From Candidatus Omnitrophota bacterium (lineage in GTDB: Bacteria > Omnitrophota > Gorgyraeia > Zapsychrales > Fredricksoniimonadaceae), in assembly GCA_002753465.1 (NCBI GenBank), contig PEAF01000001.1:5455-69454 (forward strand): a DNA stretch of 64,000 nucleotides. Reading direction: 5' to 3'. Below are positions 26,702 through 48,001 of this stretch, in pieces. Made by a program: the position numbers and the translations under genes. Positions within the stretch are counted from its first letter, which is position 1; each line of letters begins with the position of its first letter. The notes beneath the pieces were generated by a model, which made no database searches, was not told where the DNA came from, and saw nothing but the letters and a program-made list of their open reading frames with translations.

Positions 26702-27085
26702 GTGACCAGCCTTGAAAATACGCGCATTGATAAATGGTTATGGTCAGTGCGCATATGTAAGACGCGCGTGATCGCCACCGATCTATGCAAAAGGCATAAG
26801 GTGAGCATTGATGGGCAGGAGGTCAAGCCATCGCGTGACGTTAAAGTCGGGCAGATTATCAGCGTTCGAAAAGAAGGGATCGCCTGGCAGTATCGGGTTT
26901 TAAAATGTATCGACAAGCGTGTTGGCGCTGGCGTTGTTAAAGAGTCCTGCGAAGATATAACGCCTCTTGAGGAAAAAAATAAGATCGCCCTCATCAAGGG
27001 AGGGTGGGTGCCGCGGCGGGCTAAAGGCGAAGGCCGTCCGACCAAGAAGGATCGCCGGGAAATGGATCGCGTTTTAGGATTGTAA
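26702..27085 (+). CDS. S4-domain RNA-binding protein (Hsp15/HslR-like)
   Basis: GTG start. RIDKWLWSVRICKTRVIATDLCKRHKVSIDGQEVKPSRDVKVGQIISV is an S4 alpha-L motif. Confidence 0.8.
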   Translation: MTSLENTRIDKWLWSVRICKTRVIATDLCKRHKVSIDGQEVKPSRDVKVGQIISVRKEGIAWQYRVLKCIDKRVGAGVVKESCEDITPLEEKNKIALIKGGWVPRRAKGEGRPTKKDRREMDRVLGL

Positions 27086-27107
27086 TAGTCGCCATAGAAA
27101 GAAATGC

Positions 27108-27350
27108 ATGTCCGAACAACCACAGCTCCCTGATCCGGATTATCTTTTAAAACTTCTTCAAACACGCATGCCTTTTGGAAAATACAAGGACTGGCTGCTC
27201 ATCGACCTGCCGGAAACGTATATTTGCTGGTTCAGCCGTAAAGGATTTCCGGAGGGTTCTTTGGGCATGATGCTTAAAAGTATTTATGAGATCAAGCTTA
27301 ATGGATTAGAAGGCCTTCTGGAGCCTATTCGAAAAACAATGAAGCAATAA
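27108..27350 (+). CDS. DUF3820-family small protein
   Basis: 80 aa. MPFGKYKDWLLIDLPETYICWFSRKGFPEGSLG matches my recollection of the DUF3820 pattern. Confidence 0.7.
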   Translation: MSEQPQLPDPDYLLKLLQTRMPFGKYKDWLLIDLPETYICWFSRKGFPEGSLGMMLKSIYEIKLNGLEGLLEPIRKTMKQ

Positions 27351-27422
27351 GTTTATGGGTAGCGTAGAGATATAATTTATTTCTACATTGTTTTAGAGTC
27401 TCTCTTTGTTTACAATGGCTTC

Positions 27423-29315
27423 ATGTTGAAAAAGTTATGTTTGAATTTATCCATTAGTTCTTCCGTTTTTCTATTCCTCCTGGGTTTCTTTTCTTCGATG
27501 GCTCTTGCTGCTAACTCGACGACAGATAGTTATTCTGCAATTGAATTGCGGCCGATCGTGATCTCTGCAGTGCGAAGCGCTGTTTATGGCGGCCGCCTGG
27601 CAGAGAATGTTGTTATTTATTCCAAGAGCCGGATCAAGGCCATGCCTGCGCGCGATCTTGGGGAGGTCTTAGGTTATATGCCGGGTGTGGATATGAGTGT
27701 TGGCGGTGGGTTTGGCCAGGCCACATCGCTATCGATCCACGGTTCGAATTCCCGCGATGTCCTTGTCATGGTCGATGATATCCCGTTTAATACCCAGCTT
27801 TCCGGTCAGGCCAGCCCAACGCGTATTCCCATCGATAACATTGAACGTGTCGAGGTCATTAAAGGGGCCTCTTCCAGTGCCTGGGGATCCAGTATGGGGG
27901 GCATTATTAATGTGATCACCAAAGATACGGGCGATAGCGTTATACCAACAGGGAACGTGACCAATTCTTTCGGGGCTTTTGCCACGCGCAAGCATAGTAT
28001 GGATATGGCAGGAAAGGCGGGGGACGTCGGGTACTATTTTATGGACAGTTTTATGGATAGTGACGGAACGCGTTTTCAGTCACCCGTCCGCGAGCAGAAA
28101 TCTTTCGCCAAGATGTCTGTGCCTTTAACCGATATCGCCAAGGTGACCGGTTCTTTTGGTTATAGTGGCGCCAGGGTTCGTCAACGCGTATTCTCGACCA
28201 ACAGGATCAATGAGTCGCCTTATATCGCCCGGTATGGCAAATTGAAGCTCGATCTTGACCAGCCGGATGGGAATGTCAATTTGGCTTATAAATACAACGG
28301 TCAGGAAATGTCGACGGATACGTATAATGCGCTCACGAACAGCCGTGTTTCTACATCAGCCAATCGCAATGAGTATCAAGGTCTCGGTATTAATGGCCAT
28401 ACACGTGTCCGTGAAGATGATACTTTTGTGATGGGCGCTGATCTTGACTGGCAGACGATCAAATCGAGCAATTATTTAAAAACTGCCAAGAGTGTTAAAA
28501 CGCAGGCGCCGTACGCTAACTATACATTGAAGCTTGGCTCCTGGGACTTGATCCCGGGTTTGCGTTTTGATAACAATGAAACTTTTGGTAATCAGCTCAG
28601 CCCCAGTGTTGGGGGTATTTATCATTTTTCACCCGAGAATGATACTCAGTGGCGCTTGAAGGCTTCAAGGGCATTTACGGCGCCTCCTTTGATGTGGATC
28701 TATAACGATGATCCCACGTTGTGGGTTGCCCCGAATCTGGATCTTAAGGCGGAAAGGGCGTTTGTTTATGAAACAGGTGCGACCGCTGATCTCGGGCGCT
28801 GGCGTATGGATGTTAATTTTTACCGCAGTGATGTAACGGATGGCCTTTCGACAGTTTTTGTGAGTGGGTTAAGCGCTTATCAGAAGCAGAATATCGGCAA
28901 ACTCCGGCGCGAAGGCGTCGAGGCGCAGGTTGACTATAGGGTCTCCAGTGAACTTAAGGCTTATGTTTCCGGGGGGTATAGTCACCCTGTGAACCGTGCT
29001 ACGCGAGATGTCGTGCGTGGCAATGGCGTTGCCCTGCAAAGTTTTGGTACTGGCATCAGTTATATGGCGCCTCTGGGCGTTGGCGTTGATCTTTACGGAC
29101 ATTATGACCGTTGGGATTCGCCGGCTTTAGAAGCTAATGACCGCAAACCCATGTTCGATCTCAAATTTAATAGAGCGTGGAAGTCTGTGTACAAGAAGCT
29201 GGATCTGAATGTATTTCTTAATATTTATAATCTGACCAATAGCAAATATTGGACCGCTCCTTCCTTGCCATTACCTGAACGCTACCTTGAGGGTGGCGCA
29301 ACCGTTTCTTTCTGA
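27423..29315 (+). CDS. TonB-dependent outer-membrane receptor
   Basis: Signal peptide, plug domain (..GQATSLSIHGSNSRDVLVMVDDIPFN...IERVEVIKGASSSAWG..), a beta-barrel region and a C-terminal aromatic residue (...GGATVSF*). Confidence 0.9.
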   Translation: MLKKLCLNLSISSSVFLFLLGFFSSMALAANSTTDSYSAIELRPIVISAVRSAVYGGRLAENVVIYSKSRIKAMPARDLGEVLGYMPGVDMSVGGGFGQATSLSIHGSNSRDVLVMVDDIPFNTQLSGQASPTRIPIDNIERVEVIKGASSSAWGSSMGGIINVITKDTGDSVIPTGNVTNSFGAFATRKHSMDMAGKAGDVGYYFMDSFMDSDGTRFQSPVREQKSFAKMSVPLTDIAKVTGSFGYSGARVRQRVFSTNRINESPYIARYGKLKLDLDQPDGNVNLAYKYNGQEMSTDTYNALTNSRVSTSANRNEYQGLGINGHTRVREDDTFVMGADLDWQTIKSSNYLKTAKSVKTQAPYANYTLKLGSWDLIPGLRFDNNETFGNQLSPSVGGIYHFSPENDTQWRLKASRAFTAPPLMWIYNDDPTLWVAPNLDLKAERAFVYETGATADLGRWRMDVNFYRSDVTDGLSTVFVSGLSAYQKQNIGKLRREGVEAQVDYRVSSELKAYVSGGYSHPVNRATRDVVRGNGVALQSFGTGISYMAPLGVGVDLYGHYDRWDSPALEANDRKPMFDLKFNRAWKSVYKKLDLNVFLNIYNLTNSKYWTAPSLPLPERYLEGGATVSF

Positions 29316-29407
29316 CGCCCAGATTCTCCAGAAGACCCTAAAAGGTCAGTCGAAAGCCCCCTTCTACTATTTACAGATCTCTTTTATAGAATATAGTTAA
29401 TGAGTTT
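29296..29407 (+). repeat. Imperfect direct repeat, copy A (pairs with 37019-37125)
   Basis: Covers the last codons of the receptor gene plus the spacer. In the core 29321-29380, 45 of 60 positions are identical to 37040-37099 by hand alignment. The block AGTTAATGAGTT follows in both copies. Confidence 0.7.
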
Positions 29408-29475
29408 AGTTGGAACATTTTTCGTATGTGCAGGATATTTCTATTGAATGAAAACTGTCAGGACAAAGTAATCCG

Positions 29476-31089
29476 ATGGGCTTTTCTGTTATCCGTTTTT
29501 TAAATTGTTTGATAGGCGCGGGCATCATGCTGATGTGCGCAGTGCCAACATCTTCTTTTTCGGCGCAGGACGTGCCATCTTACGGCGGGACTCTTGTATG
29601 GGGAACGATCAATCCGCCGACCATCATCAATCCTGTTTTGACATATCAGGGAGTATCTTCCTCACTGATGTCCCTTATTTTTAATGCGTTGGTCCGTGTT
29701 AATGCGCAAGGAGAGATTATTCCAGATTTGGCAGAATCCTGGGATGTGTCAGAGGATGGATTGATCTATGTATTCCATTTGAAGAGAGGTGTGCACTTTC
29801 ATGATGGCGTTGAGTTGACGGCTGAAGATGTTAAGTTCACGTATGAAGCCATTGAAGATCCCCGGAATGAGTCTCAGAGAAAAGACAGGACCTCAAATGC
29901 TCTTGTGGGGCAATGGCAGGTTATTGATCAATACACTGTAAAATTTTCATTGAAGGCGGCTAATAAGTTTGTTTTGTATAAATTAGCCTTCGTGATCGCT
30001 CCTATGCATCTTTTGACAGGACAAAAAATGTCGGAAGCAGCTTTTAATTGGGCGCCTGTTGGCTCCGGGCCTTTTCGTTTTAAGGCATGGGACCATAAAA
30101 CACAGGAGATCGTGCTTGAAGCTAATCCGTACTATTTCGAAGGCAGGCCGTTCCTGGACCGGATCGTGGTTAAAGTTTATCCGGATAATACCAGTCTTTG
30201 GGCGGCATTAATGCGCCAGGAGGTGGATCTGGTCAAATTCCTGAATCGGGAAGATTATGAGGTGCTGCGCAAAGATAAGTTATTTAAAACTTATGAGATC
30301 TCGTCAGGAATATGTTCGGCCATTGTTTTTGATCTTCATGATCCTCTCCTTGCCGATATCAGGGTAAGGAAGGCCATCGCCATGGGGATCAATGTTGATC
30401 GAATGCTTAATGACATACGTTTAGGGGGAGTTCCTGGGACCGGGATATTTGAATCCGGTTCCTCCGGTTTTAATCCTGATATCAAACCGTTTGCCTATGA
30501 CCCGCAGGAGGCCCGGCGCTTGCTGGAAGCAGTTGGTTGGAAAGATCTGAATGGTGACGGTATTCTTGAAAAAGAAGGCAAGGCGTTGGAGATAAAAATG
30601 CTTGTTGAAGGCCGTAGCGGATATTATCAGGTCATGGCCATGGTTATCCGCCAGCAATTATCTGAGATAGGGGTAAAACTGGTGGTCGATCTATATCAGG
30701 ATGAGAAAGCATTCACCCAGGCGTATTTATCAGCACACAAGCCACAGGCATGGTTAAGGTCTTTTGTTTCATTTATCCGTGATCCGGGGATAGCTCTCGA
30801 GCAATGGTACCCTTCAGGCGATCTGTTGCAAAAGTTGTGGAATTACAAGAATCCCGAGCTGGATGCGCTGATCGTTGAGGCAAAAACGAGTTCCGATAAG
30901 GTGTTACAAAGCAAGGTCTATCAAAAAATACATAAGGTTATTTATGATGATCAACCGGCGTGTTTTCTATTCTCATTTGTTACGCGTCACGCCGTTGCCC
31001 GAAAGTTCTCCAATACGGACGGGTTCTTTTTTCCATTGATGCCTGTCTATTTGATTAAGGATTGGTATTTATCCCCTGTTTCGCATTAG
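29476..31089 (+). CDS. ABC-type substrate-binding protein, family 5 (peptide/nickel/opine type), with no cognate permease genes nearby
   Basis: 537 aa with a signal peptide. GGTLVWG...INP.., PDLAESWDVSEDGLIYVFHLKRGVHFHDG and ...PYYFEGRPFLDRIVVKV are typical of DppA/OppA/NikA-like binding proteins. Confidence 0.9.
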   Translation: MGFSVIRFLNCLIGAGIMLMCAVPTSSFSAQDVPSYGGTLVWGTINPPTIINPVLTYQGVSSSLMSLIFNALVRVNAQGEIIPDLAESWDVSEDGLIYVFHLKRGVHFHDGVELTAEDVKFTYEAIEDPRNESQRKDRTSNALVGQWQVIDQYTVKFSLKAANKFVLYKLAFVIAPMHLLTGQKMSEAAFNWAPVGSGPFRFKAWDHKTQEIVLEANPYYFEGRPFLDRIVVKVYPDNTSLWAALMRQEVDLVKFLNREDYEVLRKDKLFKTYEISSGICSAIVFDLHDPLLADIRVRKAIAMGINVDRMLNDIRLGGVPGTGIFESGSSGFNPDIKPFAYDPQEARRLLEAVGWKDLNGDGILEKEGKALEIKMLVEGRSGYYQVMAMVIRQQLSEIGVKLVVDLYQDEKAFTQAYLSAHKPQAWLRSFVSFIRDPGIALEQWYPSGDLLQKLWNYKNPELDALIVEAKTSSDKVLQSKVYQKIHKVIYDDQPACFLFSFVTRHAVARKFSNTDGFFFPLMPVYLIKDWYLSPVSH

Positions 31090-31254
31090 TACTAAAGCCA
31101 TTCTTAAGGTTGTACAGAAATGAAGCTTTAAATATGAAAGGGGGTGAGGAAGAGTGGTGATCGTAAAGCAGGGTTCAGCGGATGTACGCAGGCTTTCAGC
31201 GCTTAGCTGTTGTTGGCCGCCTATGACAGAGACTATGAATTTAGTGGTTGAATA

Positions 31255-31329
31255 ATGTTTCATGCTTTTGAAAATATCTGTTGCCGGAAAGGGGTTGGAC
31301 TTACGGCAGCAGATATTACTCGGGAATAA
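31255..31329 (+). CDS. Speculative 24-aa ORF immediately upstream of the rSAM/SPASM gene (candidate precursor peptide)
   Basis: ATG at 31255 to TAA at 31327-31329 encodes MFHAFENICCRKGVGLTAADITRE. It ends 14 nt before the maturase ATG. There is no convincing Shine-Dalgarno sequence. Confidence 0.2.
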   Translation: MFHAFENICCRKGVGLTAADITRE

Positions 31330-31343
31330 ATCAAGGTCCTTCC

Positions 31344-32693
31344 ATGCAATTATCTTTCTATAACATTATTGTTGATGATCATCCCATACCCGGAGAGCAT
31401 CTTCTTTACAATACCCGCACCCAGGCGCTGGTTAAGGTCGAGGGGCAGTTGATGGGGCTTTTAAAGCGGCTTGACGATCCTAAGAATTTCTCCTTGAGGA
31501 TGCAGTATGCCAATGAGCTGGTTCATTTGCATGAGATGGGTTTTATTGTCGATAATAAGTGGGATGATGTAAGGCGGTTGGTTCATTTTCTGGGTGATCT
31601 TAAGTACAAGAAAACGACGGACACGTTCTCGGTTACAATCCTGACGACCATGGCGTGTAATTTCAAATGCACTTATTGCTTTGAGGAAAATACGCGCAAG
31701 CCTTTGTGTATGGACCGGCGTACATGTGACGCAACTCTGAAATGGATCAAAGAGAGGGTTATACGGATGAAGTATGACAGCATCTTTGTTACGTTTTATG
31801 GAGGAGAGCCTTTGTTGAATGAAGAAGCGCTTGAATATTTGGCGAATGATCTGCGGGACTGGTGCGCCGGTAATGGGTTCGCGTTCAGGTTCATGATCCA
31901 GACTAATGGATACCTGATGACGCATGAGCGTGTGCAGAAGTATTTGCCCCTGGGGCTTTCTGATGTACGGATATCGCTTGATGGGGTTGCTGAAGACCAT
32001 GACCTTAAGCGCCCGTTGCGCGGCGGTGGCGGGACATTTGACGAGATCATGAAGAATATTGTTGAAAATATTTCACATGTCAGGATAGGGCTTTCTGTCA
32101 GTTATGACAAGAGCGGGGTGGCGCACATTGCCAGGCTTTTGGATCATCTTGAGAAGATCGGGATATTGCATCAATTGGGCCGAATTATCTGTTCGCCTGT
32201 TCGCGCATCGTTGGGTCAGTCTGTGCATCCAGAAAAGATATGTGGCTCGGCCTGCCTGATCAATTACAATGACGAGGAATTATTGCATTCGGTGATCGAG
32301 ATCAACCGCTTGATGAGTGTTAAAGGTATTTCAGTTCAGAAGGGTTTGCCGATCTCAGCATGCCCGTTGCTTCGTGAGCACGGAGCATTTTCTATTGATC
32401 CTCAGGGGCGTTTGTTCGGATGTAATTCCATGCTGGGCCACCCAGAGTTTTCGCTTGGCGACATCTTTCATAATACGTTCAATGATAAACGGCGAAAATT
32501 CCTGAATATGGATGTTGGACTGAATTGCCCCGTTCATTGCCGTTATTTACCGGTTTGTAATGGCGGGTGCCGGCTTATCTCATTTATCGAGCACGGACGA
32601 TTTGAACGCCCTGATTGCAAGGTACGGTATTTGGATAAGATGGCACCTGATCTTGTAAAGAAAGAATATGATGCTTTATGCCAAAGTTCCTGA
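31344..32693 (+). CDS. Radical SAM/SPASM-domain peptide-maturase-like enzyme
   Basis: An N-terminal domain of about 100 aa (possible peptide-recognition element). Radical SAM motif CNFKCTYCFE (CX3CX2C) and GGEPLL. A C-terminal Cys-rich SPASM-like region (..CPLL...GRLFGCNS...CPVHCRYLPVCNGGCR). The start was taken at ATG 31344. Confidence 0.85.
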   Translation: MQLSFYNIIVDDHPIPGEHLLYNTRTQALVKVEGQLMGLLKRLDDPKNFSLRMQYANELVHLHEMGFIVDNKWDDVRRLVHFLGDLKYKKTTDTFSVTILTTMACNFKCTYCFEENTRKPLCMDRRTCDATLKWIKERVIRMKYDSIFVTFYGGEPLLNEEALEYLANDLRDWCAGNGFAFRFMIQTNGYLMTHERVQKYLPLGLSDVRISLDGVAEDHDLKRPLRGGGGTFDEIMKNIVENISHVRIGLSVSYDKSGVAHIARLLDHLEKIGILHQLGRIICSPVRASLGQSVHPEKICGSACLINYNDEELLHSVIEINRLMSVKGISVQKGLPISACPLLREHGAFSIDPQGRLFGCNSMLGHPEFSLGDIFHNTFNDKRRKFLNMDVGLNCPVHCRYLPVCNGGCRLISFIEHGRFERPDCKVRYLDKMAPDLVKKEYDALCQSS

Positions 32694-32760
32694 TCTCATG
32701 CTGATATCCAGCATTCTAGAAATGCATGGCGGTAGGGGTACGCCTATGGTATAAAAATTT

Positions 32761-34509
32761 ATGTCATTGTTATCCCTTGTTAAGCCTCATCGTCGGGGCA
32801 TCTTTTTCATCCTGTTTTCTATCTTCCTGAGTAACGTCCTTGCCTTGTTTTTGCCCTGGGGCATCAAGATCATTGTTGACGGTGTCCTGGTTCGCAGCGG
32901 CGATGCCCTTCTTTTAAGAAAAGTCCTATGTGTATTGCTGGCAGTCCTTGTCGTCCGTACGTTGCTGAGCTTCTTGCAGAAATACATCAGCAGTATGGTT
33001 GGGGAAAAGATCGTGGCGGACCTCAGGGGCCGTCTTTATGCGCATGTCCATGGACTTGCGCTGGTCCGTATCCGGCAAATATCTCCGTCGCAGATCCTCA
33101 CGCGCATTACCTCAGATGTGGATAGTGTCCGGCGTTTTGTATTCGGGGATGCGTTGGATTTCATTTATGCCGTGTTTGCTGTCGGGTTGATCCTGGTCGT
33201 TCTAGGGTGCATTAACGGCCGTATGATGATGTGGACGCTATTGACGCTGCCGTTGTTTGTTGTCATTTATTTTGGAGGGATCCCCAGGTTAAAAAGGTGC
33301 TACGGCCGCTGGCGTGATGTGCATGGCCGGTTGACCTCAAGGGTCAATGAAGTGCTGGGGGGCATGATGACGGTCCGGGCGTTCGGTGGTGAGGTGTATG
33401 AGCGTAAGATGTTCGAGGCCGGGCAAAAGGATGTTGTGCAGGCGGCAGGCCAGGCGCATGCGCTTAACACGGCGTTATGGACAGGGGCAGAGTTCTTCAC
33501 ATCTATGGGCGTGCTGGGCGTCCTGTGGGTCGGCAGTGCGGATGTGATGGCCGGGCGCATGACACCCGGTGCGTTGGTGGCTTTTTATTCATACCTGGGG
33601 ATGCTTTTTGCGCCGCTGATGCGGATGGTCGTGATCAACAGTTCTTATCAAGAGGCTAACGCTGCCTTTGAGCGTATTGCGGATGTCTTGAATATCGACG
33701 ATAAGCTGAAGCTATCGGCGGCGCCTGTGGCCTTGGGCGATCTAAAGGGCGAGGTTGTTTTTGAGGATGTTTCTTTCCGTTATCTTACGCAGCAGCGTGT
33801 CCTTGAAAAGGTTTCGTTCAAGGTTATGCCCGGTGAGACGGTGGCTGTGGTCGGGCCGAGCGGGGTCGGCAAAAGTACGCTGGTAGGCCTTTTACTGCGT
33901 TTGTTCGATGTTGAGGAAGGCCGTATCCTTATTGACGGGCATGATCTGCGGGAACTGGATCTTGATGCATACCGCCGGCGGGTTTCGGTTGTGCTGCAGG
34001 ATGATTTTCTGTTCCAGGATACCGTGGCCGCCAATATCGGGTATGCGCTTGAAGGCCTATCGTTCGATAAGATTGTGGCCGCCGCCAGGGTAGCTCAGGC
34101 TCATGATTTCATTATGGCGCTTTCTGACGGGTACGATACCAAAGTGGGTGAGCGCGGAGTGCTTCTTTCCTGCGGACAACGCCAACGTATCGCCATGGCA
34201 CGGGCCTTGGTGAGGGATCCACGGGTCCTTGTTTTAGATGAGGCGACATCGGCCGTTGATGCCATGACTGAGAATGCCATCCAGAAAGCGGTGAAGGATT
34301 TTGGGGCTCCAAGAACGGTTTTTGTTGTGGCGCACCGTTTCTCGACGATCATGGAGGCGGACAGGATCATTGTCATGCAGGAAGGCAGGCTGGTCGATGT
34401 CGGCGGACATACCGAACTTTTGGAAAGATCACCCTTTTACAGGGAATTGTACCTGGAGCAGTTCAAAGGTTCCGGTGAGTGCATGGGATCGGAGGGGGTG
34501 ATCCTGTGA
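32761..34509 (+). CDS. ABC exporter, fused permease/ATPase (MsbA/type I exporter-like), no peptidase domain
   Basis: 582 aa with six N-terminal TM helices. Walker A GPSGVGKST, signature LSCGQRQR and Walker B LVLDEATSAVD. Confidence 0.9.
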   Translation: MSLLSLVKPHRRGIFFILFSIFLSNVLALFLPWGIKIIVDGVLVRSGDALLLRKVLCVLLAVLVVRTLLSFLQKYISSMVGEKIVADLRGRLYAHVHGLALVRIRQISPSQILTRITSDVDSVRRFVFGDALDFIYAVFAVGLILVVLGCINGRMMMWTLLTLPLFVVIYFGGIPRLKRCYGRWRDVHGRLTSRVNEVLGGMMTVRAFGGEVYERKMFEAGQKDVVQAAGQAHALNTALWTGAEFFTSMGVLGVLWVGSADVMAGRMTPGALVAFYSYLGMLFAPLMRMVVINSSYQEANAAFERIADVLNIDDKLKLSAAPVALGDLKGEVVFEDVSFRYLTQQRVLEKVSFKVMPGETVAVVGPSGVGKSTLVGLLLRLFDVEEGRILIDGHDLRELDLDAYRRRVSVVLQDDFLFQDTVAANIGYALEGLSFDKIVAAARVAQAHDFIMALSDGYDTKVGERGVLLSCGQRQRIAMARALVRDPRVLVLDEATSAVDAMTENAIQKAVKDFGAPRTVFVVAHRFSTIMEADRIIVMQEGRLVDVGGHTELLERSPFYRELYLEQFKGSGECMGSEGVIL

Positions 34510-36284
34510 TGATGTTTTTTGCGCAGCGCTTAAAAGGATGGGTCGCCTTTTTATGGCCTCGACGGATTTGGCAGCAGATCTTCTGGGTGCTCCTTTTACT
34601 AGCGGTTGTGCCGCTGGTTGTCCTGGGTACGTTGCTGATCAATACCAGTCAGCAGGCGGTCAGGACATCTGTCCTGCGTGATCATAAAGAGATCGCTTAT
34701 CGTGCGGCCGGTCAGGTGAATGAATTTGTTCGAAAACCTCAGGATCTGCTGATGACGGCGGCATCCATCATGGGGGTAAGCCATGCCGATGCCTGGCGAC
34801 AGGAAACGGCTATCGTCGAGCTTTCCCTGCGTTTTCCAATGTTGCGCCGTGTGGCGTCCATTGATATCAACGGGCAGGAGGTCGCCGTATCAAAGCTGGG
34901 CAGTGACAAGATCGATCGGTCCAAAGAAGAATCTTTCTTAAGTGCGCGTGAGGGTAGGCCGTTCATCTCTTCTGTTAATATCCATGGGACGGATACGCCG
35001 GTTGTTACTATTTCAGTGCCCATTACGCAATGGGGTAAGGTCAATGGCGTTCTTATGGCTGAGGTTGATCTTAGGGGTATGTGGGATATCGTAGATGGCA
35101 TCCATGTAGGAACGACAGGGTATGCGTGCGTGGTCGATCGTTCTGGAGCGCTCATTTCGCATCCGAACAAGAAAATGATCCTGAGCCACGAACCTCTTTT
35201 TAATACAAAGATAGTGGGGGAGGTGTTATCCGGCAAGGGGGGCAGCCTGGAGGATGTGGATGCTCAGGGCGGAGGATGGATCGCCTCCTACGCGCCGGTA
35301 GAAGGTGCTGGCTGGGGACTTTTGATCTTTCAGTCAGCGGCGGAAGCTTATGCTTTTTCGAAGATCATGAAGGTTCAGGCATGGTCATTTATTTTGATCG
35401 TTATGGTGGCCGCCTTCATCATTAGTATGGCATTGGCAAGGTTCATGAGCCGTCCGCTTAATATGTTGCTTGATGGCGCCCGGCGGATATCGCTGCGGGA
35501 TTATGATCATCCCTTGCCTGTGGCGCATCAGGACGAGATCGGGCAGATCATGGCTTCTTTTAATGATATGACGGCTAAACTCAAGCAGGTCCGCCAGGCA
35601 GAGAAGCTGTCGCTCATAGGTAAAGCCGTGACGAGCATTGTGCATGAGCTCAAGAATTCGCTGGTACTGGTCGATACGTACATTCAGCTCCTGGGTGAGC
35701 GTTATAAGGATAAACAGTTCATCCAGGAATTCACCCGTGTTGTGCCCCAGGAGTTGAACGCCTGGAAAGGGATGCTGCAGAACATGGGGGAGTATGCGCG
35801 CGTGCCGTATTTTGCGCTTGATCCGGTCGATGTCAATGTATTGCTTAAGGATGTGGCTCTCTTGGCGGATCACCGGGTCAAACAGCATGGGGCTGACTTT
35901 GTTGTCGAGGAGGCATTCGGTATCCCGCCGGTGCGCGGTAATGCCGACAAGCTCAGGCAGGTGTTGATGAATTTACTTTCTAATGCCCTGGATTCCATGT
36001 CTTATGCCGGGACCGTGTGGCTGACGTCCGCTCTCAGGGCGCATCCATCCCACGCAGGCAGGTTGTTTGTGGTAATATCGGTTGAGAATACGGGAGAGGT
36101 CATTTCTCCCGAGAGGCTGGAGCGTATCTTTGAGCCGTTTTTTACGACCAAGGACGGCGGGTTGGGTTTGGGCTTGGCGATCTGCCGTGAGATTGTCGAA
36201 CGTCATGATGGTTTTATTGATGTTGTCAGCGGCCCTGTGAAGACGGCGTTCCGCGTTCATTTACCGTTGGATAATGGGGGTTGA
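34509..36284 (+). CDS. Sensor histidine kinase with extracytoplasmic Cache-like domain and HAMP
   Basis: The start ATG overlaps the ABC stop (GTGATGATG). TM, then a periplasmic region of about 250 aa (..GYACVVDRSGALISHPNKK..), a second TM and HAMP. H-box SIVHELKNSL. LMNLLSNALDS and GGLGLGLAICREIV. Confidence 0.85.
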   Translation: MMFFAQRLKGWVAFLWPRRIWQQIFWVLLLLAVVPLVVLGTLLINTSQQAVRTSVLRDHKEIAYRAAGQVNEFVRKPQDLLMTAASIMGVSHADAWRQETAIVELSLRFPMLRRVASIDINGQEVAVSKLGSDKIDRSKEESFLSAREGRPFISSVNIHGTDTPVVTISVPITQWGKVNGVLMAEVDLRGMWDIVDGIHVGTTGYACVVDRSGALISHPNKKMILSHEPLFNTKIVGEVLSGKGGSLEDVDAQGGGWIASYAPVEGAGWGLLIFQSAAEAYAFSKIMKVQAWSFILIVMVAAFIISMALARFMSRPLNMLLDGARRISLRDYDHPLPVAHQDEIGQIMASFNDMTAKLKQVRQAEKLSLIGKAVTSIVHELKNSLVLVDTYIQLLGERYKDKQFIQEFTRVVPQELNAWKGMLQNMGEYARVPYFALDPVDVNVLLKDVALLADHRVKQHGADFVVEEAFGIPPVRGNADKLRQVLMNLLSNALDSMSYAGTVWLTSALRAHPSHAGRLFVVISVENTGEVISPERLERIFEPFFTTKDGGLGLGLAICREIVERHDGFIDVVSGPVKTAFRVHLPLDNGG

Positions 36285-36286
36285 AG

Positions 36287-36997
36287 ATGTTCTACGAGAA
36301 GATCGTTGCCATAGATGATGATGTACGTCAGCTTGAAAGTTTGAAGCTTGTTTTGGGCAGGCATTATGAGCTCATTTGCTTCAGGAGTGGCGAAGAAGCT
36401 CTTTTGTACCTGAAGCGTCCTAATGGCATCAGGCTTGTTCTTCTGGATATTTGCATGAAGGGTATGGATGGGCTTGCCGTATTAAATGAGATCCGTCAGA
36501 TGGGTTTGGATATCAAGGTCGTTATTATGACCGGGCATGGTTCCAAGGAAATGGCTGTGCAGGCGTTGCGCTATGGTGCGAATGATTTTATCGACAAGCC
36601 TTTTGATATCCGGGTTCTGCAAGACAAGGTTCGTCAATTCCTGAAAAAGAACAATAGTCATGAGCATGAGCAGGGCCTTATCCCCGGACGGATGAAGTCT
36701 TTCATGGAAAAAAATCTTGCGGGTGTGACGCTTAAAGATATGGCCGAGGACCTTTGTTTGAGCGAGAAATACGTTGGCCGTGTTTTCAGGAAAAACAATG
36801 CGTCCAGCTTCAGGGATTGCAAGATCAACATGAAGATTGAGAAAGCCAAGGACCTTTTGCAGAGCTCGGCTTATCCAGTTTACAAGATTGCAAGCATGTT
36901 GGGTTATCAGAACCCCGAAACCTTCATGCGGATATTCAAACGCAAAACCACATTATCGCCGCTTCAATACCGCAACGCCACCAAACCTGCCAAGTGA
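36287..36997 (+). CDS. Response regulator with AraC-type HTH output domain
   Basis: REC (..LVLLDICMKGMDGLAVL..) followed by a C-terminal HTH_AraC domain (..LKDMAEDLCLSEKYVGRVFRK...IASMLGYQNPETFMRIFKRKTTLSPLQYR). Confidence 0.85.
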   Translation: MFYEKIVAIDDDVRQLESLKLVLGRHYELICFRSGEEALLYLKRPNGIRLVLLDICMKGMDGLAVLNEIRQMGLDIKVVIMTGHGSKEMAVQALRYGANDFIDKPFDIRVLQDKVRQFLKKNNSHEHEQGLIPGRMKSFMEKNLAGVTLKDMAEDLCLSEKYVGRVFRKNNASSFRDCKINMKIEKAKDLLQSSAYPVYKIASMLGYQNPETFMRIFKRKTTLSPLQYRNATKPAK

Positions 36998-37018
36998 TCC
37001 TGTAACAGATTCACTCTC

Positions 37019-37125
37019 TGGCGCCTCCTTTTCTCTTCGACATTCTCCAGAATGTACGAAAAAGTCAGTTGAAAGTCCCCTTATCCTATCGACAGATAAA
37101 TAAGAGTTGATAAGTTAATGAGTTC
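37019..37125 (+). repeat. Imperfect direct repeat, copy B (pairs with 29296-29407)
   Basis: Begins 22 nt after the response-regulator stop. It contains ATTCTCCAGAA, GTCAGTTGAAAGTCCCCTT, CTAT..ACAGAT and AGTTAATGAGTT in the same order and spacing as copy A. Confidence 0.7.
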
Positions 37126-37185
37126 TACTTTATCGCATGATGTATTTTAAGTTGATCTAAGTCAGAAGAGGCGGGGTAAGGGCGG

Positions 37186-37557
37186 ATGAAAAGTATACAT
37201 ATTCTTATTGTTGAAGATGATGATGACTGTCGATTATTCACTGAAATGATTTTAAAAGAACTGGGCTGTACCTTTGAGATTGCGCTAAACGGGCATGAAT
37301 CTGTGGACAAAGTTGGGAAGGGAAAGTTTGATGCGGTCCTGATGGATGTGCTGATGCCGGTCATGAAGGGCTATGATGCGATAGCTGCGATTAGACAGAT
37401 ACATATAAATTTACCGATCATCGTGGTGACAGCCTACCGTATCGACTTGGTCGAGCAGAAATGTTTTGAACTTGGTGTGAATGACTATTTGATAAAGCCT
37501 TTTCAGAAAGAGGAGTTGGCTGAGAAACTAAAAAAATGGACGGTTCTTAGGCAATAG
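37186..37557 (+). CDS. Single-domain response regulator (REC only)
   Basis: 123 aa. ILIVEDDDDCR...AVLMDVLMPVMKGYDA...VVTAY...DYLIKP. Confidence 0.85.
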   Translation: MKSIHILIVEDDDDCRLFTEMILKELGCTFEIALNGHESVDKVGKGKFDAVLMDVLMPVMKGYDAIAAIRQIHINLPIIVVTAYRIDLVEQKCFELGVNDYLIKPFQKEELAEKLKKWTVLRQ

Positions 37558-37588
37558 CTGAATACGACAGATTTCAAGGAGAAAGTAG

Positions 37589-37798
37589 ATGGCATTATCC
37601 GTAATAAATGACCTGATCAAGGATCCTGAGATCAGGAAAGAGATCGAACACTACAAGTGGATCGAAAGTGAAAAGATGGGCGCTGATATCGGTTTCGAAC
37701 GGGCGGCTGAAGAATGGTTCGTTCAATATTCCAAGGCATGGCTCAAGGTCCTCGCTGCGGCAGCCAAAAAGCCGGCACGCAAGGCGAAGAATGTTTGA
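37589..37798 (+). CDS. Small protein, first of three tandem paralogs, with a Lys/Ala-rich tail
   Basis: 69 aa with GGAG upstream. Core DPEIRKEIEHYKWIESEKMGADIGFERAAEEWFVQYSKAW. The tail is AAAAKKPARKAKNV. Confidence 0.6.
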   Translation: MALSVINDLIKDPEIRKEIEHYKWIESEKMGADIGFERAAEEWFVQYSKAWLKVLAAAAKKPARKAKNV

Positions 37799-37833
37799 CG
37801 TTAACCGCGTTCATCTTTTTATAAAGGAGTTAA

Positions 37834-37992
37834 ATGTTGTCCTTAATAAAGGCAGGATTGATCAATGATCCCGAAATATGCGTAGAGATCGAGTGTTACA
37901 GACAGACCGAAAGTAAGAAGCTGGGGGTGGATATTGGTTTTGAAAAGGCGGCTGAAGAATGGGTCCGCTCAATATTCAAAGAAAGAGCTTAA
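37834..37992 (+). CDS. Small protein, second tandem paralog (1-nt indel and 45-nt deletion relative to copy 1; possibly decaying)
   Basis: AAGGAG lies 5 nt upstream. Encodes MLSLIKAGLINDPEICVEIECYRQTESKKLGVDIGFEKAAEEWVRSIFKERA*. It is not in the ORF track because it is under 60 aa. Confidence 0.45.
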   Translation: MLSLIKAGLINDPEICVEIECYRQTESKKLGVDIGFEKAAEEWVRSIFKERA

Positions 37993-38037
37993 AGTTTGAC
38001 GTTCATCGTTTTGTTCCTTGAATAGATGGGGGTGCGG

Positions 38038-38205
38038 ATGAAGCGCTTATGGTCGGCAATGATCAAGGTTTATAAGGAAAGAGCGGCTGATTATTTTCCG
38101 GTGAAGAATGAAAAAGCTGCTGTGTGCTCTCCAGACAGGAATGCAAAGAAGCTTAAGACTATGCTTGATGCGGTGGCTTCGAATAAGGATCAAACCGAGT
38201 CCTAA
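38038..38205 (+). CDS. Small ORF, possible third, strongly diverged paralog
   Basis: 55 aa, MKRLWSAMIKVYKERAADYFPVKNEKAAV.... KERAADYF resembles FERAAEEWF of copy 1, and 8 nt (GCGGCTGA) are identical. Confidence 0.3.
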   Translation: MKRLWSAMIKVYKERAADYFPVKNEKAAVCSPDRNAKKLKTMLDAVASNKDQTES

Positions 38206-38259
38206 GAATCTTGGCGTTTTTATTCGCCCGTCAATTCATTATCGTGTATATTAAAGTCC

Positions 38260-38619
38260 ATGAACATCGCCATCATCGGTGCCACAGACAAGCCGGATCG
38301 ATATGCCTACATGGCCTTAAGGGCTTTATTAGACCATGGGCATATGGTTTTTCCGGTCCATCCCAAGATCCGTAACATTGATGGCATTCCTGTTTTTGCC
38401 ACGATCAAGGACATCCCAGGGCCCATAGATACGGTAACCTTGTATGTTGGCCCTCAAACTTCCTCTTTGTTAAAAAAGGACATTCTGGAGAAGTCGCCCC
38501 AAAGGATCATCTTTAACCCGGGTGCAGAGAATCCCGAGCTTAAGGCTCTGGCAGATCAAAAGGGAATAGAAACGATCAACGGATGTACATTGGTGATGCT
38601 AAGTACGGGGCAGTTTTAA
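38260..38619 (+). CDS. CoA-binding domain protein (YccU-like)
   Basis: 119 aa. IAIIGATDKPDRYAYMALRALLDHGHMVFPVHPK...TVTLYVGP. Confidence 0.8.
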   Translation: MNIAIIGATDKPDRYAYMALRALLDHGHMVFPVHPKIRNIDGIPVFATIKDIPGPIDTVTLYVGPQTSSLLKKDILEKSPQRIIFNPGAENPELKALADQKGIETINGCTLVMLSTGQF

Positions 38620-43581: not shown

Positions 43582-44172
43582 ATGACAAGTAATTCGTTTA
43601 GATCGACCATCCGTTATGATGAAGAAATCGCCCGTTGGGCCTTGAGACTACTGGCGCACAAGCCGGTAAGGACGTATTTTTCATCTTCTTCCAGGGCCAA
43701 AGAGATCAAGATGTTTCTCTTGTTCCATGTTTTTATTATGCTCGTTAATCTTTCTGTGGCCGGCTATATTCTGAAAGCTGGCCTTTCATATAAGCCATAT
43801 GACGGCATCTGGATATTCTTGTCTTTGGCAGCGGCTTATCTGATCGAGATACCGTATAAGAACCTTTTGGCAGATAATGTTACGGCATTTGTACAGTCAG
43901 AATTTTCGGAAGAAGATCTGAAGAAGATAACTATTGTTCAAATGAGTGTTCGTTTGGAAAAGAAATATCAGGCGCCAGAACTGATAGATACAGTTTCGGG
44001 GTGGATGTCTATATTCCGGTATGGTTTGGTATTTCTATATGCATTTCTGCTGTTGATCTTTATCCCTTTTACGCAGGCATCACTGATCATATTGTCTGTA
44101 GCCTGGGCTGCCCGGGCTCTCTCCAGGTCTTCTATCCTTGCAGACCGCATAGTACCTGTTAAAGTCGTTTAG
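43582..44172 (+). CDS. Membrane protein, unknown function (about 4 TM)
   Basis: 196 aa. Its stop overlaps by 4 nt the stop of the convergent radical SAM gene. Confidence 0.5.
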   Translation: MTSNSFRSTIRYDEEIARWALRLLAHKPVRTYFSSSSRAKEIKMFLLFHVFIMLVNLSVAGYILKAGLSYKPYDGIWIFLSLAAAYLIEIPYKNLLADNVTAFVQSEFSEEDLKKITIVQMSVRLEKKYQAPELIDTVSGWMSIFRYGLVFLYAFLLLIFIPFTQASLIILSVAWAARALSRSSILADRIVPVKVV

Positions 44173-46088
44173 ATTAATCCAAAGTAGAAATAACTGAGCA
44201 TTAGCATCAGGAAAATTAATCCTGTAGTGGATGTACTTAGGAAAAAGAAGAAGTTTACGACAATAAAACAATTTCTAAAGAATGGATTATTCAGTTTCGG
44301 GTGATCATACGTCAGTGTTAGAAAATCGATCCTGTTCCAATTCAGGTTAATAAAGCGGTCTTGCTTTTCAATATCCCCGTATAAACGCGAATTAGGGATT
44401 GGTGTGAACAGTGTCAAGGTGGACATCAGGGGCCTGATCTTGGCTGAAGACCATACCAGTTTCCAGAATGTCATAAAGTCATCTGAATCAAATCCGTAAA
44501 GGAACTGCCCTTTGATCTGTATGCCCATTTTCTTAAGTTTTTGGGTCAGGCTGATATAGTCATGCGCCATGGACAGTTTCGGGATCCTGGCAACTTCTTT
44601 TGATCCGGCGAAGATCTCATAGCCGATCAACAACTGTACGCACCCACTGTCTTTGCACAGTTGCAGGGCTTCGGGGTCTTTGGCAATATCAATGCTGCTG
44701 TTGGCATTCCAATGGATCTTCAGAGGGATCAGGCGTTTAAAAAGCTCTTTGGCGTAGGCAGGATCCGAATAAATGTTGTCATCAAGAAAGTTCAGGGTTT
44801 TCTCATAGGTACTGGCTTTTTTGACCAGTTCAATGACAAGATCCAGCGGATGATTGTAATAGCCAATACGCAGATGCCCTGCCCCGCAGAAATTACAATT
44901 GAATTTGCAACCGCGCGTTGTTTCAATTGAACTGGTGATCAATTCCGGTGGTTGGGTTAACAGGAATCGAGTTACTTTATTGTATGCTTCAGGGGTAGGT
45001 TTTCCAGCATAGGTTCTTTTTAAATTGCCTGATTCATAGTCACGGATCAGATCTTCCCAAACACCTTCTACCGGTCCGACAACAACGGTATCACAAAATT
45101 CCAAAGCCTCTTCAGGGAAGGCGGTAACATGAGAACCTCCCATGATGACCTTACTGCCTCTTTTCCGAAATCCTTTGGCGATCCTGTAAGCCTCCATACA
45201 ATTATTGGAAAAGCAGGTAATCCCTACTATGCCGGCAGGTGTGTAATGTTCTTCTTTCCAGGGAATGCGGGTGAATTCTTTAAATTCATAACCGTCAGGG
45301 GTAAGGCCGCGCAGGATGTTAAAGACGTAGGGACGTTTTTCACGAAAAGCGAATGATGAAAGGCTGTAGATCAGGCTGCCTGAGACAGGGTTTATCAGGA
45401 TGATCGTTCTTTCTTTAGGCCAGGAGACGGTTTTAGGAAGGTTCAATTGTTGGATGATCGTCGTAGCCGCGCTTAAGAATATCCAGAAACTTGAGTATTT
45501 CAGAAGAAAAATACCCATGGCATTAAGGGCAACCCATTCTTCAGGAATGAAATAATAGAAAGAATAGACGCTGTAAAAGATCAACGAAGTTATGATAACA
45601 ACGCCCCAGGTAGTGCCTGTGGTCATTTTCTGACGTGCCGCGGTTTCTGAGGGATATTTATGCTCCAGGACTATTTTGACCCACAAGATCGCTACCAATG
45701 GCTGTACAAGCATTTGGACGGTATGGAACGGGGTTGGTGTATTTAATAATAAATAAACAGCAAAATGCAACAGATAAGGTAGTAAGGTCAAACAAACGGC
45801 TGTCTTGAAGAAAGCTTTTTTATTAATGTTGAACGATTTGACCAGGGGCGGAAACTCCTGGCCAGTGGCATGCTCGATCAGGTAGCCATAGGTGAAAGCG
45901 GTTAAAGTTGCTTTCAGCAGGAACATGCCAATGAATTCTGGCCAGGCGAGGATATTGGCCAATGCTTGAGGTAAATGGAAAGCAATGACCGGGCTCCAGG
46001 ATTCAAAGTACGTTAGAACGGCAACGGGCAGAATGAGTTTATTGAGTAAATTGAAGGACTCGCGTAAACGGTCAAATATCTGCCTCAT
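44169..46088 (-). CDS. Membrane-embedded B12-binding-type radical SAM protein, paralog 2
   Basis: About 220 aa of N-terminal TM helices. A Rossmann-like segment (TIILINP...GSKVIMGGSHVTAFPEEALEFCDTVVVGP). Radical SAM motif IETTRGCKFNCNFCGAGHL and a C-terminal TM helix. The ATG at 46088 forms an ATGA overlap with paralog 1. A GTG start at 46094 is also possible. Confidence 0.85.
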   Translation of the reverse strand: MRQIFDRLRESFNLLNKLILPVAVLTYFESWSPVIAFHLPQALANILAWPEFIGMFLLKATLTAFTYGYLIEHATGQEFPPLVKSFNINKKAFFKTAVCLTLLPYLLHFAVYLLLNTPTPFHTVQMLVQPLVAILWVKIVLEHKYPSETAARQKMTTGTTWGVVIITSLIFYSVYSFYYFIPEEWVALNAMGIFLLKYSSFWIFLSAATTIIQQLNLPKTVSWPKERTIILINPVSGSLIYSLSSFAFREKRPYVFNILRGLTPDGYEFKEFTRIPWKEEHYTPAGIVGITCFSNNCMEAYRIAKGFRKRGSKVIMGGSHVTAFPEEALEFCDTVVVGPVEGVWEDLIRDYESGNLKRTYAGKPTPEAYNKVTRFLLTQPPELITSSIETTRGCKFNCNFCGAGHLRIGYYNHPLDLVIELVKKASTYEKTLNFLDDNIYSDPAYAKELFKRLIPLKIHWNANSSIDIAKDPEALQLCKDSGCVQLLIGYEIFAGSKEVARIPKLSMAHDYISLTQKLKKMGIQIKGQFLYGFDSDDFMTFWKLVWSSAKIRPLMSTLTLFTPIPNSRLYGDIEKQDRFINLNWNRIDFLTLTYDHPKLNNPFFRNCFIVVNFFFFLSTSTTGLIFLMLMLSYFYFGLI

Positions 46089-47998: not shown

Positions 47999-48001
47999 AG
48001 A

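Follow-up and report, generated by a model that had tools for sequence, protein, structure and literature searches.

In the agr locus of Staphylococcus aureus, with its promoters P2 and P3, and in the nisin, subtilin and plantaricin loci, a regulator encoded within the operon recognizes the same box at more than one promoter. The operon for the precursor, its maturation and export, the kinase and the regulator is driven by one of them, and an output gene by another. The regulators of these Gram-positive systems are of the LytTR or OmpR type, the boxes are short direct repeats and the peptide is a proven signal. Here we describe an imperfect direct repeat at a putative ribosomal-peptide locus of Candidatus Omnitrophota bacterium, an uncultured organism represented by a metagenome-assembled genome (assembly GCA_002753465.1). 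The window, i.e. the complete stretch of DNA that was analyzed, comprises 64,000 nucleotides of contig PEAF01000001.1 (positions 5,455 to 69,454, forward strand), and positions given without a locus name refer to it. One copy of the repeat, here named copy A, lies between the gene of a TonB-dependent receptor and a block of genes for a solute-binding protein, a precursor peptide, a radical S-adenosylmethionine (SAM) maturase, an ATP-binding cassette (ABC) exporter, a histidine kinase and an AraC-type response regulator. The second one, copy B, is located between this block and a gene for a CheY-like stand-alone receiver (REC) domain.

Regulators of the AraC/XylS family possess one DNA-binding domain with two helix-turn-helix (HTH) motifs. 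These motifs contact two neighbouring major grooves within an asymmetric site of about 17-20 bp, and the regulators act next to or over the -35 element. The marbox of the AraC/XylS proteins MarA, SoxS and Rob is likewise asymmetric and about 17-20 bp long. Its two conserved sub-elements are separated by roughly one turn of the helix, and it has a fixed distance and orientation to the -35 element. With respect to gene content, methanobactin (mbn) operons combine a ribosomal precursor with a TonB-dependent transporter and an orphan binding protein of the family-5 type, and maturation is carried out by MbnB and MbnC.

In the HptRSA system of S. aureus, HptA is the binding protein, HptS a dCache-like kinase and HptR a regulator of the AraC family, which acts on a site at -67 to -96 of uhpT (PMC6291074, PMC8050422, PMC11019936). 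Binding proteins that stimulate a kinase tend to be encoded next to signalling genes (reviewed in PMC8050422). The family-5 binding protein of the window, with no permease gene nearby, matches this pattern by analogy. As in HptRSA, a solute-binding protein is encoded beside a dCache-type kinase and an AraC-family regulator, and an activator site, putative here, is located upstream of the -35 element. Unlike the window, HptRSA belongs to another phylum, acts on other target genes and has glucose-6-phosphate as its ligand, and HptA is outside family 5. Furthermore, it is without a peptide, a radical-SAM enzyme and a TonB receptor, and no duplicated promoter is known.

The agr/nisin-type loci resemble the window in that a regulator box is shared across the promoters of a peptide/two-component locus, the binding being a prediction in the window. 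In contrast to them, the window encodes a regulator of the AraC type, and its copy B is a traceable segmental duplicate of copy A. The likeness of the box to the marbox is one of geometry only, as MarA, SoxS and Rob are without a receiver domain and have another consensus. The mbn operons show the same gene combination, yet they lack a radical-SAM enzyme and are regulated differently, and there is no sequence evidence of relatedness. For the radical-SAM enzyme the best family is the 'geopeptide' system (precursor TIGR04229, maturase TIGR04280), yet both scores were well under the cut-offs (30 and 400 bits, respectively), and nothing relevant was found in the literature on geopeptide, TIGR04280 or CCWPP. 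By analogy, regulator type and sensor layout are closest to HptRSA, and the overall design looks familiar. Novelty lies in the specific box, in the phylum and in the occurrence of an AraC-type regulator in a radical-SAM peptide cluster that includes a TonB receptor. A less common feature is a promoter copy that can be traced to its source through a coding relic. We propose, with a probability of about 0.65, that copy A serves as control region for the peptide operon, that copy B is its segmental duplicate and that both would function as activator-dependent promoters of the sigma-70 type.

Copy A (29294-29406) and copy B (37019-37124) are both orientated on the + strand, and their best local alignment reached a score of 39 with one gap of 6 nt and one of 1 nt. 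Shuffles with the wider flanks gave 9.3±1.3 (maximum 15; z=23 for the observed 39). When the two intergenic spacers alone were aligned, the score was 36 compared to 9.4±1.4 in 2000 dinucleotide-preserving shuffles (z=18.6). The repeat had been proposed in the initial annotation, and its coordinates and counts were confirmed together with the significance of the alignment. An ungapped comparison of 29321-29380 with 37040-37099 yielded exactly the 45 identities in 60 positions counted there, and the four shared blocks named in it were all found in the same order. A repeat finder paired 29323-29378 with 37042-37097 at 79% identity (family D7). Overall the copies shared 68% identity (96 columns), with 79% in the core.

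The arrangement of both copies relative to the adjacent genes was also as described initially. Copy B starts 22 nt past the stop codon of the regulator gene (36997), and both copies end 60-70 nt 5' of an ATG, at 29476 for copy A and at 37186 for copy B. A pattern of 20 core bases, allowing up to three mismatches, matched twice in the window with 0.01 matches expected. Besides the two copies, a profile of the 12 sites described below detected no further site in the window below E=14.

Within the repeat a module of three elements can be distinguished. The central one is an asymmetric box of 17 nt (AAAAnGTCAGTnnAAAG), which ends 13 nt before the -35 hexamer. In copy A it reads AAAAGGTCAGTCGAAAG (29340-29356) and is presumed to be the site of the activator, from about -66 to -50. 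In copy B it reads AAAAAGTCAGTTGAAAG (37059-37075), as located by the core pattern and the alignment of the 12 sites. Its geometry fits the AraC/XylS family by analogy. Downstream of the box, copy A contains a sigma-70-like promoter (29370-29397; TTTACA, 16 nt, TATAGT) with 10 of 12 matches, which was the top + strand site of this type in a promoter scan of 27000-38400. The corresponding hexamers of copy B (37089-37116) were read from the sequence as TCGACA, 16 nt and TAAGTT. The copy B promoter is predicted to be the weaker one, and the -35 change from TTTACA to TCGACA leaves it equally close to TTGACA.

The third element is the distal block ATTCTCCAGAA, a TTCT-NN-AGAA inverted repeat, which is identical in copy A (29323-29333) and copy B (37042-37052) and lies ~16 nt upstream of GTCAG in both. 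At the same distance, TTCTCTAGAA is found in L001, the closest relative among the loci compared below, and A/T-rich ATTTTTAAAA-like sequences are found in most other loci. The block may be the site of a second protein, or a bend or UP-like element. With box, -35 and -10 in a fixed register, the layout is most likely that of an activator-dependent promoter. Two other motif assignments were considered and rejected. A sigma-54 promoter is suggested by TGGCGC-N5-TTTC in both copies; the GC at -12 is missing, and in copy A this stretch corresponds to the last codons of the receptor. The TAATGA in AGTTAATGAGTT bears only a partial hexamer resemblance to a Fur site and was not used.

For comparison, Omnitrophota loci with a homologue of the binding protein (48-67% identity) were retrieved, here named L001, L002, L003, L013/L014, L015, L016, L017 and L018; the number of independent loci available was eight. 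With a profile made from copies A and B, the element was detected right behind the receptor gene, with E=5e-11 for L001 and E=0.006 for L002. In the alignment of these two with copies A and B the box AAAAnGTCAGTnnAAAG is invariant, followed by 10 nt, CTATnnAC and, further downstream, a ATAGTTAAT-like block, in this order. The profile of these four sequences gave weaker matches in L015 to L018, always between receptor and binding protein. Additionally, it revealed a second site in L015, after the regulator gene and before a REC-PAS kinase gene (E=7e-7), and one in L016 directly before the AraC-type regulator gene (E=1e-5).

The module was found without gaps directly after the receptor gene in eight loci, with AAAAnGTCAGTnnAAAG, 10 nt, CTATTTAC(A) as -35 element, 16 nt and TAnanT as -10 element. 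Over both strands of about 204 kb, a loose pattern (AAA..GTCAG..N15-18..C[CT]ATT) likewise matched only behind the receptor gene, in all eight loci, and at one further site each in L013, L015 and L016. All 28 matches counted fall on these 11 places, in overlapping registers, and shuffles gave 0.26 on the same count; copy B, which carries CTATCG, is not matched by this pattern. In total, 12 sites could be aligned on GTCAG without gaps, giving aAAAa.GTCAGt..AAaG.....T...cCTATTTac, 16 nt and TA.a.t. In three other genomes (L013, L015 and L016) the second instance precedes a REC-domain gene, which in L016 is the regulator gene itself. The resemblance between the two sites of these genomes is confined to the box and the -35 element (z=3-8). 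From these comparisons the long repeat is specific to the lineage of the window, and the two-site design recurs.

The initial annotation had offered a shared cis-regulatory region as one explanation of the repeat, and this part of it is supported by a core with fixed spacing in eight clusters, by the best + strand promoter match and by second sites in three genomes. The presence of the element after the receptor in all eight homologous loci is in agreement with it, as absence from such loci would have counted against a regulatory role. In public genome and metagenome collections the 20-base core pattern matched the L001 contig, one Omnitrophica WOR_2 contig and a handful of sequences with varied G+C content. 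About one chance match is expected for 20 fixed bases in 1.2e12 positions, and these matches were not used; two of them, L010 and L012, contained no related genes.

The origin of copy B can be read from its left end. The leftmost part of copy A (29294-29316) is coding and comprises the codons G-A-T-V-S-F and the TGA of the receptor gene, whereas the equivalent part of copy B (37019-37041) is a non-coding relic of this 3' end with 17/23 identity, in which TGA is changed to CGA. The sequences are T GGC GCA ACC GTT TCT TTC TGA C in copy A and TGGCGCCTCCTTTTCTCTTCGAC in copy B. A weaker similarity upstream of the core had already been noticed, and it proved to be real: among 127,956 positions on both strands the 23-mer 37019-37041 has its single best match at 29294 (17/23), and no other position reached 16 or more.

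The ending ..EGG.....F/Y, with the stop codon behind it, is shared by all eight receptor orthologues. Because these C-termini are conserved, the receptor-end stretch is ancestral and coding at copy A and a non-coding relic at copy B. In L001 about 85 nt separate the receptor stop codon from the ATTCTCTAGAA block, and no relic-like sequence is present upstream of the motif. From the relic and this spacing we infer that copy B was copied from copy A as a segment of ~113 nt, once the promoter had come to abut the receptor stop in this lineage. The segment carried the last codons of the receptor together with the control region, and landed just after the regulator gene and before a CheY-like receiver gene, which is associated with another kinase in relatives. 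The direction of copying, from A to B, is shown by the receptor-gene relic.

Even in columns that are unconserved among ten sites of other genomes, copies A and B are 59% identical (33/56), which points to common descent beyond the motif. The divergence between copy A and copy B (68% identity) about equals that between copy A and its L001 orthologue (69%), and the duplication is therefore not recent. Of the 21 positions conserved among the ten sites, copy B matches 18 (p about 0.009 against the 59% background), which argues modestly that selection maintains it.

The genes of the cluster are all encoded on the + strand. The TonB-dependent receptor gene (27423-29315; Pfam Plug and TonB_dep_Rec_b-barrel) is the conserved left neighbour of the module. 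Just 5' of it, an open reading frame (ORF) of 80 residues (27108-27350, +) matches PF12843, a 'putative quorum-sensing-regulated virulence factor', with 104 bits. At the equivalent place L001 and L016 carry a GIY-YIG ORF of 80-84 residues. The first gene after copy A encodes the family-5 solute-binding protein (29476-31089; Pfam SBP_bac_5, 270 bits), and its best NCBIfam matches, NikA, Opp4A and CntA, were all under the cut-offs.

It is followed by an unannotated-looking ORF of 33 residues (31154-31255) for the precursor peptide, ..LSALSCCWPPMTE.., with a GTG start and the ribosome-binding site GAAAGGGGGTGA. Precursors of 33-42 residues were found across the loci, with an invariant CC[W/F]PP and with ribosome-binding site and reading frame kept in all of them. 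The precursor model TIGR04229 gave a faint match to the L018 orthologue only (12.7 bits, cut-off 30) and none to the precursor of the window. With the 33-residue ORF as a conserved precursor, the block is predicted to be a ribosomal-peptide cluster with its own two-component system.

The Radical-SAM/SPASM peptide maturase gene (31281-32693; Pfam Radical_SAM and Fer4_12) probably has its true start near 31344. Its best NCBIfam match was TIGR04280 with 238 bits against the cut-off of 400, with the alignment starting from residue 22. The ABC exporter gene (32761-34509; Pfam ABC_membrane and ABC_tran) encodes fused membrane and ATPase domains, and the histidine kinase (34479-36284) carries dCache and HAMP domains according to the domain search. 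The response regulator gene (36281-36997; Pfam Response_reg, HTH_18 and HTH_AraC) combines a REC domain with an AraC-type HTH region, and its product is the candidate for binding to the box.

Binding protein, precursor, radical-SAM enzyme, dCache kinase and AraC-type regulator are kept in this order in every locus. The receptor gene is located in front in every locus whose contig reaches upstream, i.e. in all but L003, and the REC + HTH_18 regulator gene is present wherever the contig extends far enough. The regulator gene of L001 (15058-15761) was called as two overlapping ORFs for receiver and HTH, reflecting a frameshift or an assembly error. L001 and L002 contain one additional PAS-domain gene between receptor and binding protein. 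The ABC exporter gene was found in the window, in L001 to L003 and in L017 and was absent from L013, L015, L016 and L018. This patchy presence suggests a separate history of the ABC gene.

The gene 3' of the regulator was less conserved. It is rsmD in L002 and L003 and a REC-PAS kinase gene in L015. In the loci L013 (15966-16334), L016 (15767-16153), L017 (17739-18140) and L018 (15764-16162) a pseudo-receiver of 122-133 residues is encoded directly 3' of the regulator. This family begins with ..ILIIDAHPVY.., has the usual acidic pair replaced and is absent from the window, L002 and L003. An orthology of the REC gene of the window to this 'IIDAHPVY' pseudo-receiver was rejected, since both share only 24% identity and represent distinct families.

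In the window the first gene after copy B is that of the CheY-like stand-alone receiver (37186-37557, +; Pfam Response_reg). Its closest homologues (63% and 54% identity) are encoded on other Omnitrophica contigs, 31-35 nt downstream of a gene for a PAS histidine kinase, and no trace of the motif was detected near them. Since the synteny of receptor and block is kept and the REC homologues are located elsewhere, receptor and block are the ancestral unit and the REC gene is a newcomer. Directly 3' of the REC gene are two paralogous small ORFs of 69 and 52 residues (37589-37798 and 37834-37992, +) with AGGAG ribosome-binding sites, which are probably co-transcribed from the copy B promoter. These two ORFs account for the repeat D1 (107 nt, 74% identity) and share the motif DPEI..EIE.Y..ES.K.G.DIGFE.AAEEW. 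Their sole family match was a weak one to DUF4032 (E=0.005).

The activator at both copies is probably the AraC-type regulator of the cluster. The REC-HTH_18 protein is the sole conserved gene product of the locus family for which a DNA-binding domain is annotated, its two HTH segments hardly vary among seven orthologues, and in L016 the box precedes its own gene; for these reasons it is the best candidate binder. In the proposed circuit the kinase would sense a periplasmic signal, which could be the matured peptide or a complex of it and could be relayed by the orphan binding protein, and would phosphorylate the regulator. Bound at the box beside the -35 element, the regulator would recruit RNA polymerase to both promoters. 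Promoter A would then lead to self-induction of peptide, maturase, exporter, kinase and regulator. In response to the same signal promoter B would drive the CheY-like receiver gene, probably together with the two small ORFs behind it. Binding partner of the box, activation, transcription starts and type of signal are all predictions from the DNA sequence.

Several points weigh against this reading. The regulator is assigned to the box by association only. The hexamers of copy B match the consensus at 5/6 and 3/6 positions, i.e. at 8/12, which is under the threshold of the scan, and its -10 element TAAGTT is weak. The excess of identity between copies A and B in conserved columns is marginal (17/21 compared to 33/56 in unconserved ones; Fisher p=0.059). 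The distal TTCT-NN-AGAA block could belong to a second factor. Furthermore, the copy count of the element covers the 64-kb window only, and the loose pattern was written post hoc, when the sites had already been seen, so that the E-values of the profiles are the more independent measure. Finally, a box with TTGACA occurs before an unrelated Schlafen-type helicase gene in another Omnitrophota genome.

This genome is Omnitrophica WOR_2 bacterium RIFOXYA2_FULL_38_17 (L004 4128-4183, - strand, equal to L011 4804-4842). The box is located about 110 nt upstream of the gene for a Schlafen-type helicase / S24 peptidase of 797 residues, beside a restriction-modification pair. It may be due to chance, to a more general factor or to a distant regulon member.

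Some of these points return in the alternatives. It is doubtful, though worth considering, that the promoter/operator is read by another protein, such as a metal or nutrient regulator acting with the TonB receptor, a factor binding TTCT-NN-AGAA, or an alternative sigma factor recognizing GTCAGT, 17 nt and TATTTA. The spacing of GTCAGT and TATTTA is exactly 17 nt, the distal palindromic block is conserved in position, and both the assignment by association and the box before the unrelated gene in L004/L011 would fit such a protein. On the other hand, TAnanT follows TTTAC(A) after 16 nt in most of the 12 sites, which fits sigma-70, and no sigma factor or other regulator gene is conserved in the loci. 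The box is asymmetric and thereby unlike the palindromes of the Fur or NikR type, and it tracks the cluster up to the regulator gene itself in L016.

That copy B is a dead fossil is judged unlikely. The receiver gene would then be read through from the regulator gene or from another start, and read-through is possible as the promoter/terminator scan showed no terminator-like site after the regulator gene. The low hexamer score of copy B and the marginal p=0.059 for the conserved columns are also in agreement with decay. However, copy B has kept the box and the CTAT..AC element exactly despite an overall identity of 68% to copy A, and it matches conserved positions above background (p about 0.009, see above). 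Moreover, its -35 hexamer TCGACA is as close to TTGACA as TTTACA is, and a second box before a REC-domain gene occurs in three other genomes as well.

The initial annotation had alternatively interpreted the copies as a scar of recombination or insertion, i.e. as att-type direct repeats around a five-gene block that was placed between the receptor and the REC gene. As with the repeats of att-type islands, several genes are bracketed here, over 7.7 kb, and the ABC and kinase genes have the highest G+C content among the long ORFs of the window (53.7% and 52.7%, respectively). Nevertheless, we regard this explanation as highly improbable. Receptor and block form a conserved unit with synteny across all eight loci; what varies is the REC gene. 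No relative was found in which the receptor gene is followed directly by the REC gene, an arrangement the initial annotation had suggested looking for; the block follows the receptor in eight loci. Pfam searches of the genes between the copies identified only the binding protein, radical-SAM, ABC exporter, kinase and regulator, and no integrase, transposase or recombinase. The repeats are imperfect, with 68% overall and 79% core identity, and are themselves a promoter module. Four loci with the block (L001, L002, L017 and L018) carry the motif only once.

A higher G+C content of the ABC and kinase genes had been put forward as compatible with a mosaic origin. The direction of this difference is right, and its extent was overstated, as the binding-protein gene has 45.2% and the window 46.5%. 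Third-position G+C is 61.7% for the ABC gene and 59.7% for the kinase gene, and the next long ORFs reach 51-52%, with 59.4% at third positions. The rise spans about 33.0-36.3 kb, i.e. the ABC and kinase genes, and its borders do not coincide with the repeats. In L001 the ABC and kinase genes have 51.0% and 53.2%, respectively. Because L001 shows the same pattern, the rise predates the split from this nearest relative, and because it ends away from the repeats and is shared with L001, it is no evidence for repeats that bracket an island.

Equally remote is the idea that the repeat encodes a structured RNA, such as a leader, a riboswitch or a small RNA, or that it belongs to the dispersed intergenic repeats of the repetitive extragenic palindrome or miniature inverted-repeat transposable element type (REP/MITE). 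The two copies are intergenic and about 60-70 nt before start codons, but an Rfam scan of the whole window gave nothing at the gathering score, folding energies of both strands were the same as for shuffles (z -0.8 to +1.2) with no significant hairpin, and the conserved part lies upstream of and across -35 and -10 with the similarity stopping near the predicted start. Within the 64 kb of the window, which is the extent of the count, there are just two copies, and neither of them matched the plasmid and phage collections.

Elsewhere in the window, two tandem paralogous genes of about 640-670 residues (44171-46187 and 46087-48001, - strand) give rise to several further repeats of 74-79% identity with a spacing of 1913 nt (families D2, D3, D6 and D10).

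Beyond the proposed control of both promoters, a wider interpretation is possible, and we offer it tentatively. The box would be the operator of an undescribed peptide-sensing circuit that is widespread in Omnitrophota, with a promoter copy that recruits a CheY-like receiver of a PAS pathway. A CCWPP peptide modified by the radical-SAM enzyme would be exported and then recaptured or sensed via the TonB receptor, the family-5 binding protein and the dCache kinase. The peptide would serve as signal or would carry metal or cargo, and the AraC-type regulator would close a positive feedback. The promoter copy, with its fossil of the receptor end, would have moved the CheY-like receiver from a PAS-kinase pathway into the regulon.

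The general view of how two-component systems and peptide clusters are regulated is unchanged by these results, and the regulatory rewiring is tidy and unsurprising. What the locus provides is a testable promoter/operator motif for a conserved, uncharacterised peptide cluster of Omnitrophota, for which experimental genetics is almost absent, and the profile of 12 sites can be used for a regulon search in complete Omnitrophota genomes. In addition, regulon growth via the copying of a promoter segment can be read here with unusual clarity, and the retained codons fix the direction. If the proposed regulation is true, the peptide operon and the CheY-like receiver would be under one signal; in the wider interpretation, the sensing of the peptide would be coupled to a second signalling output.

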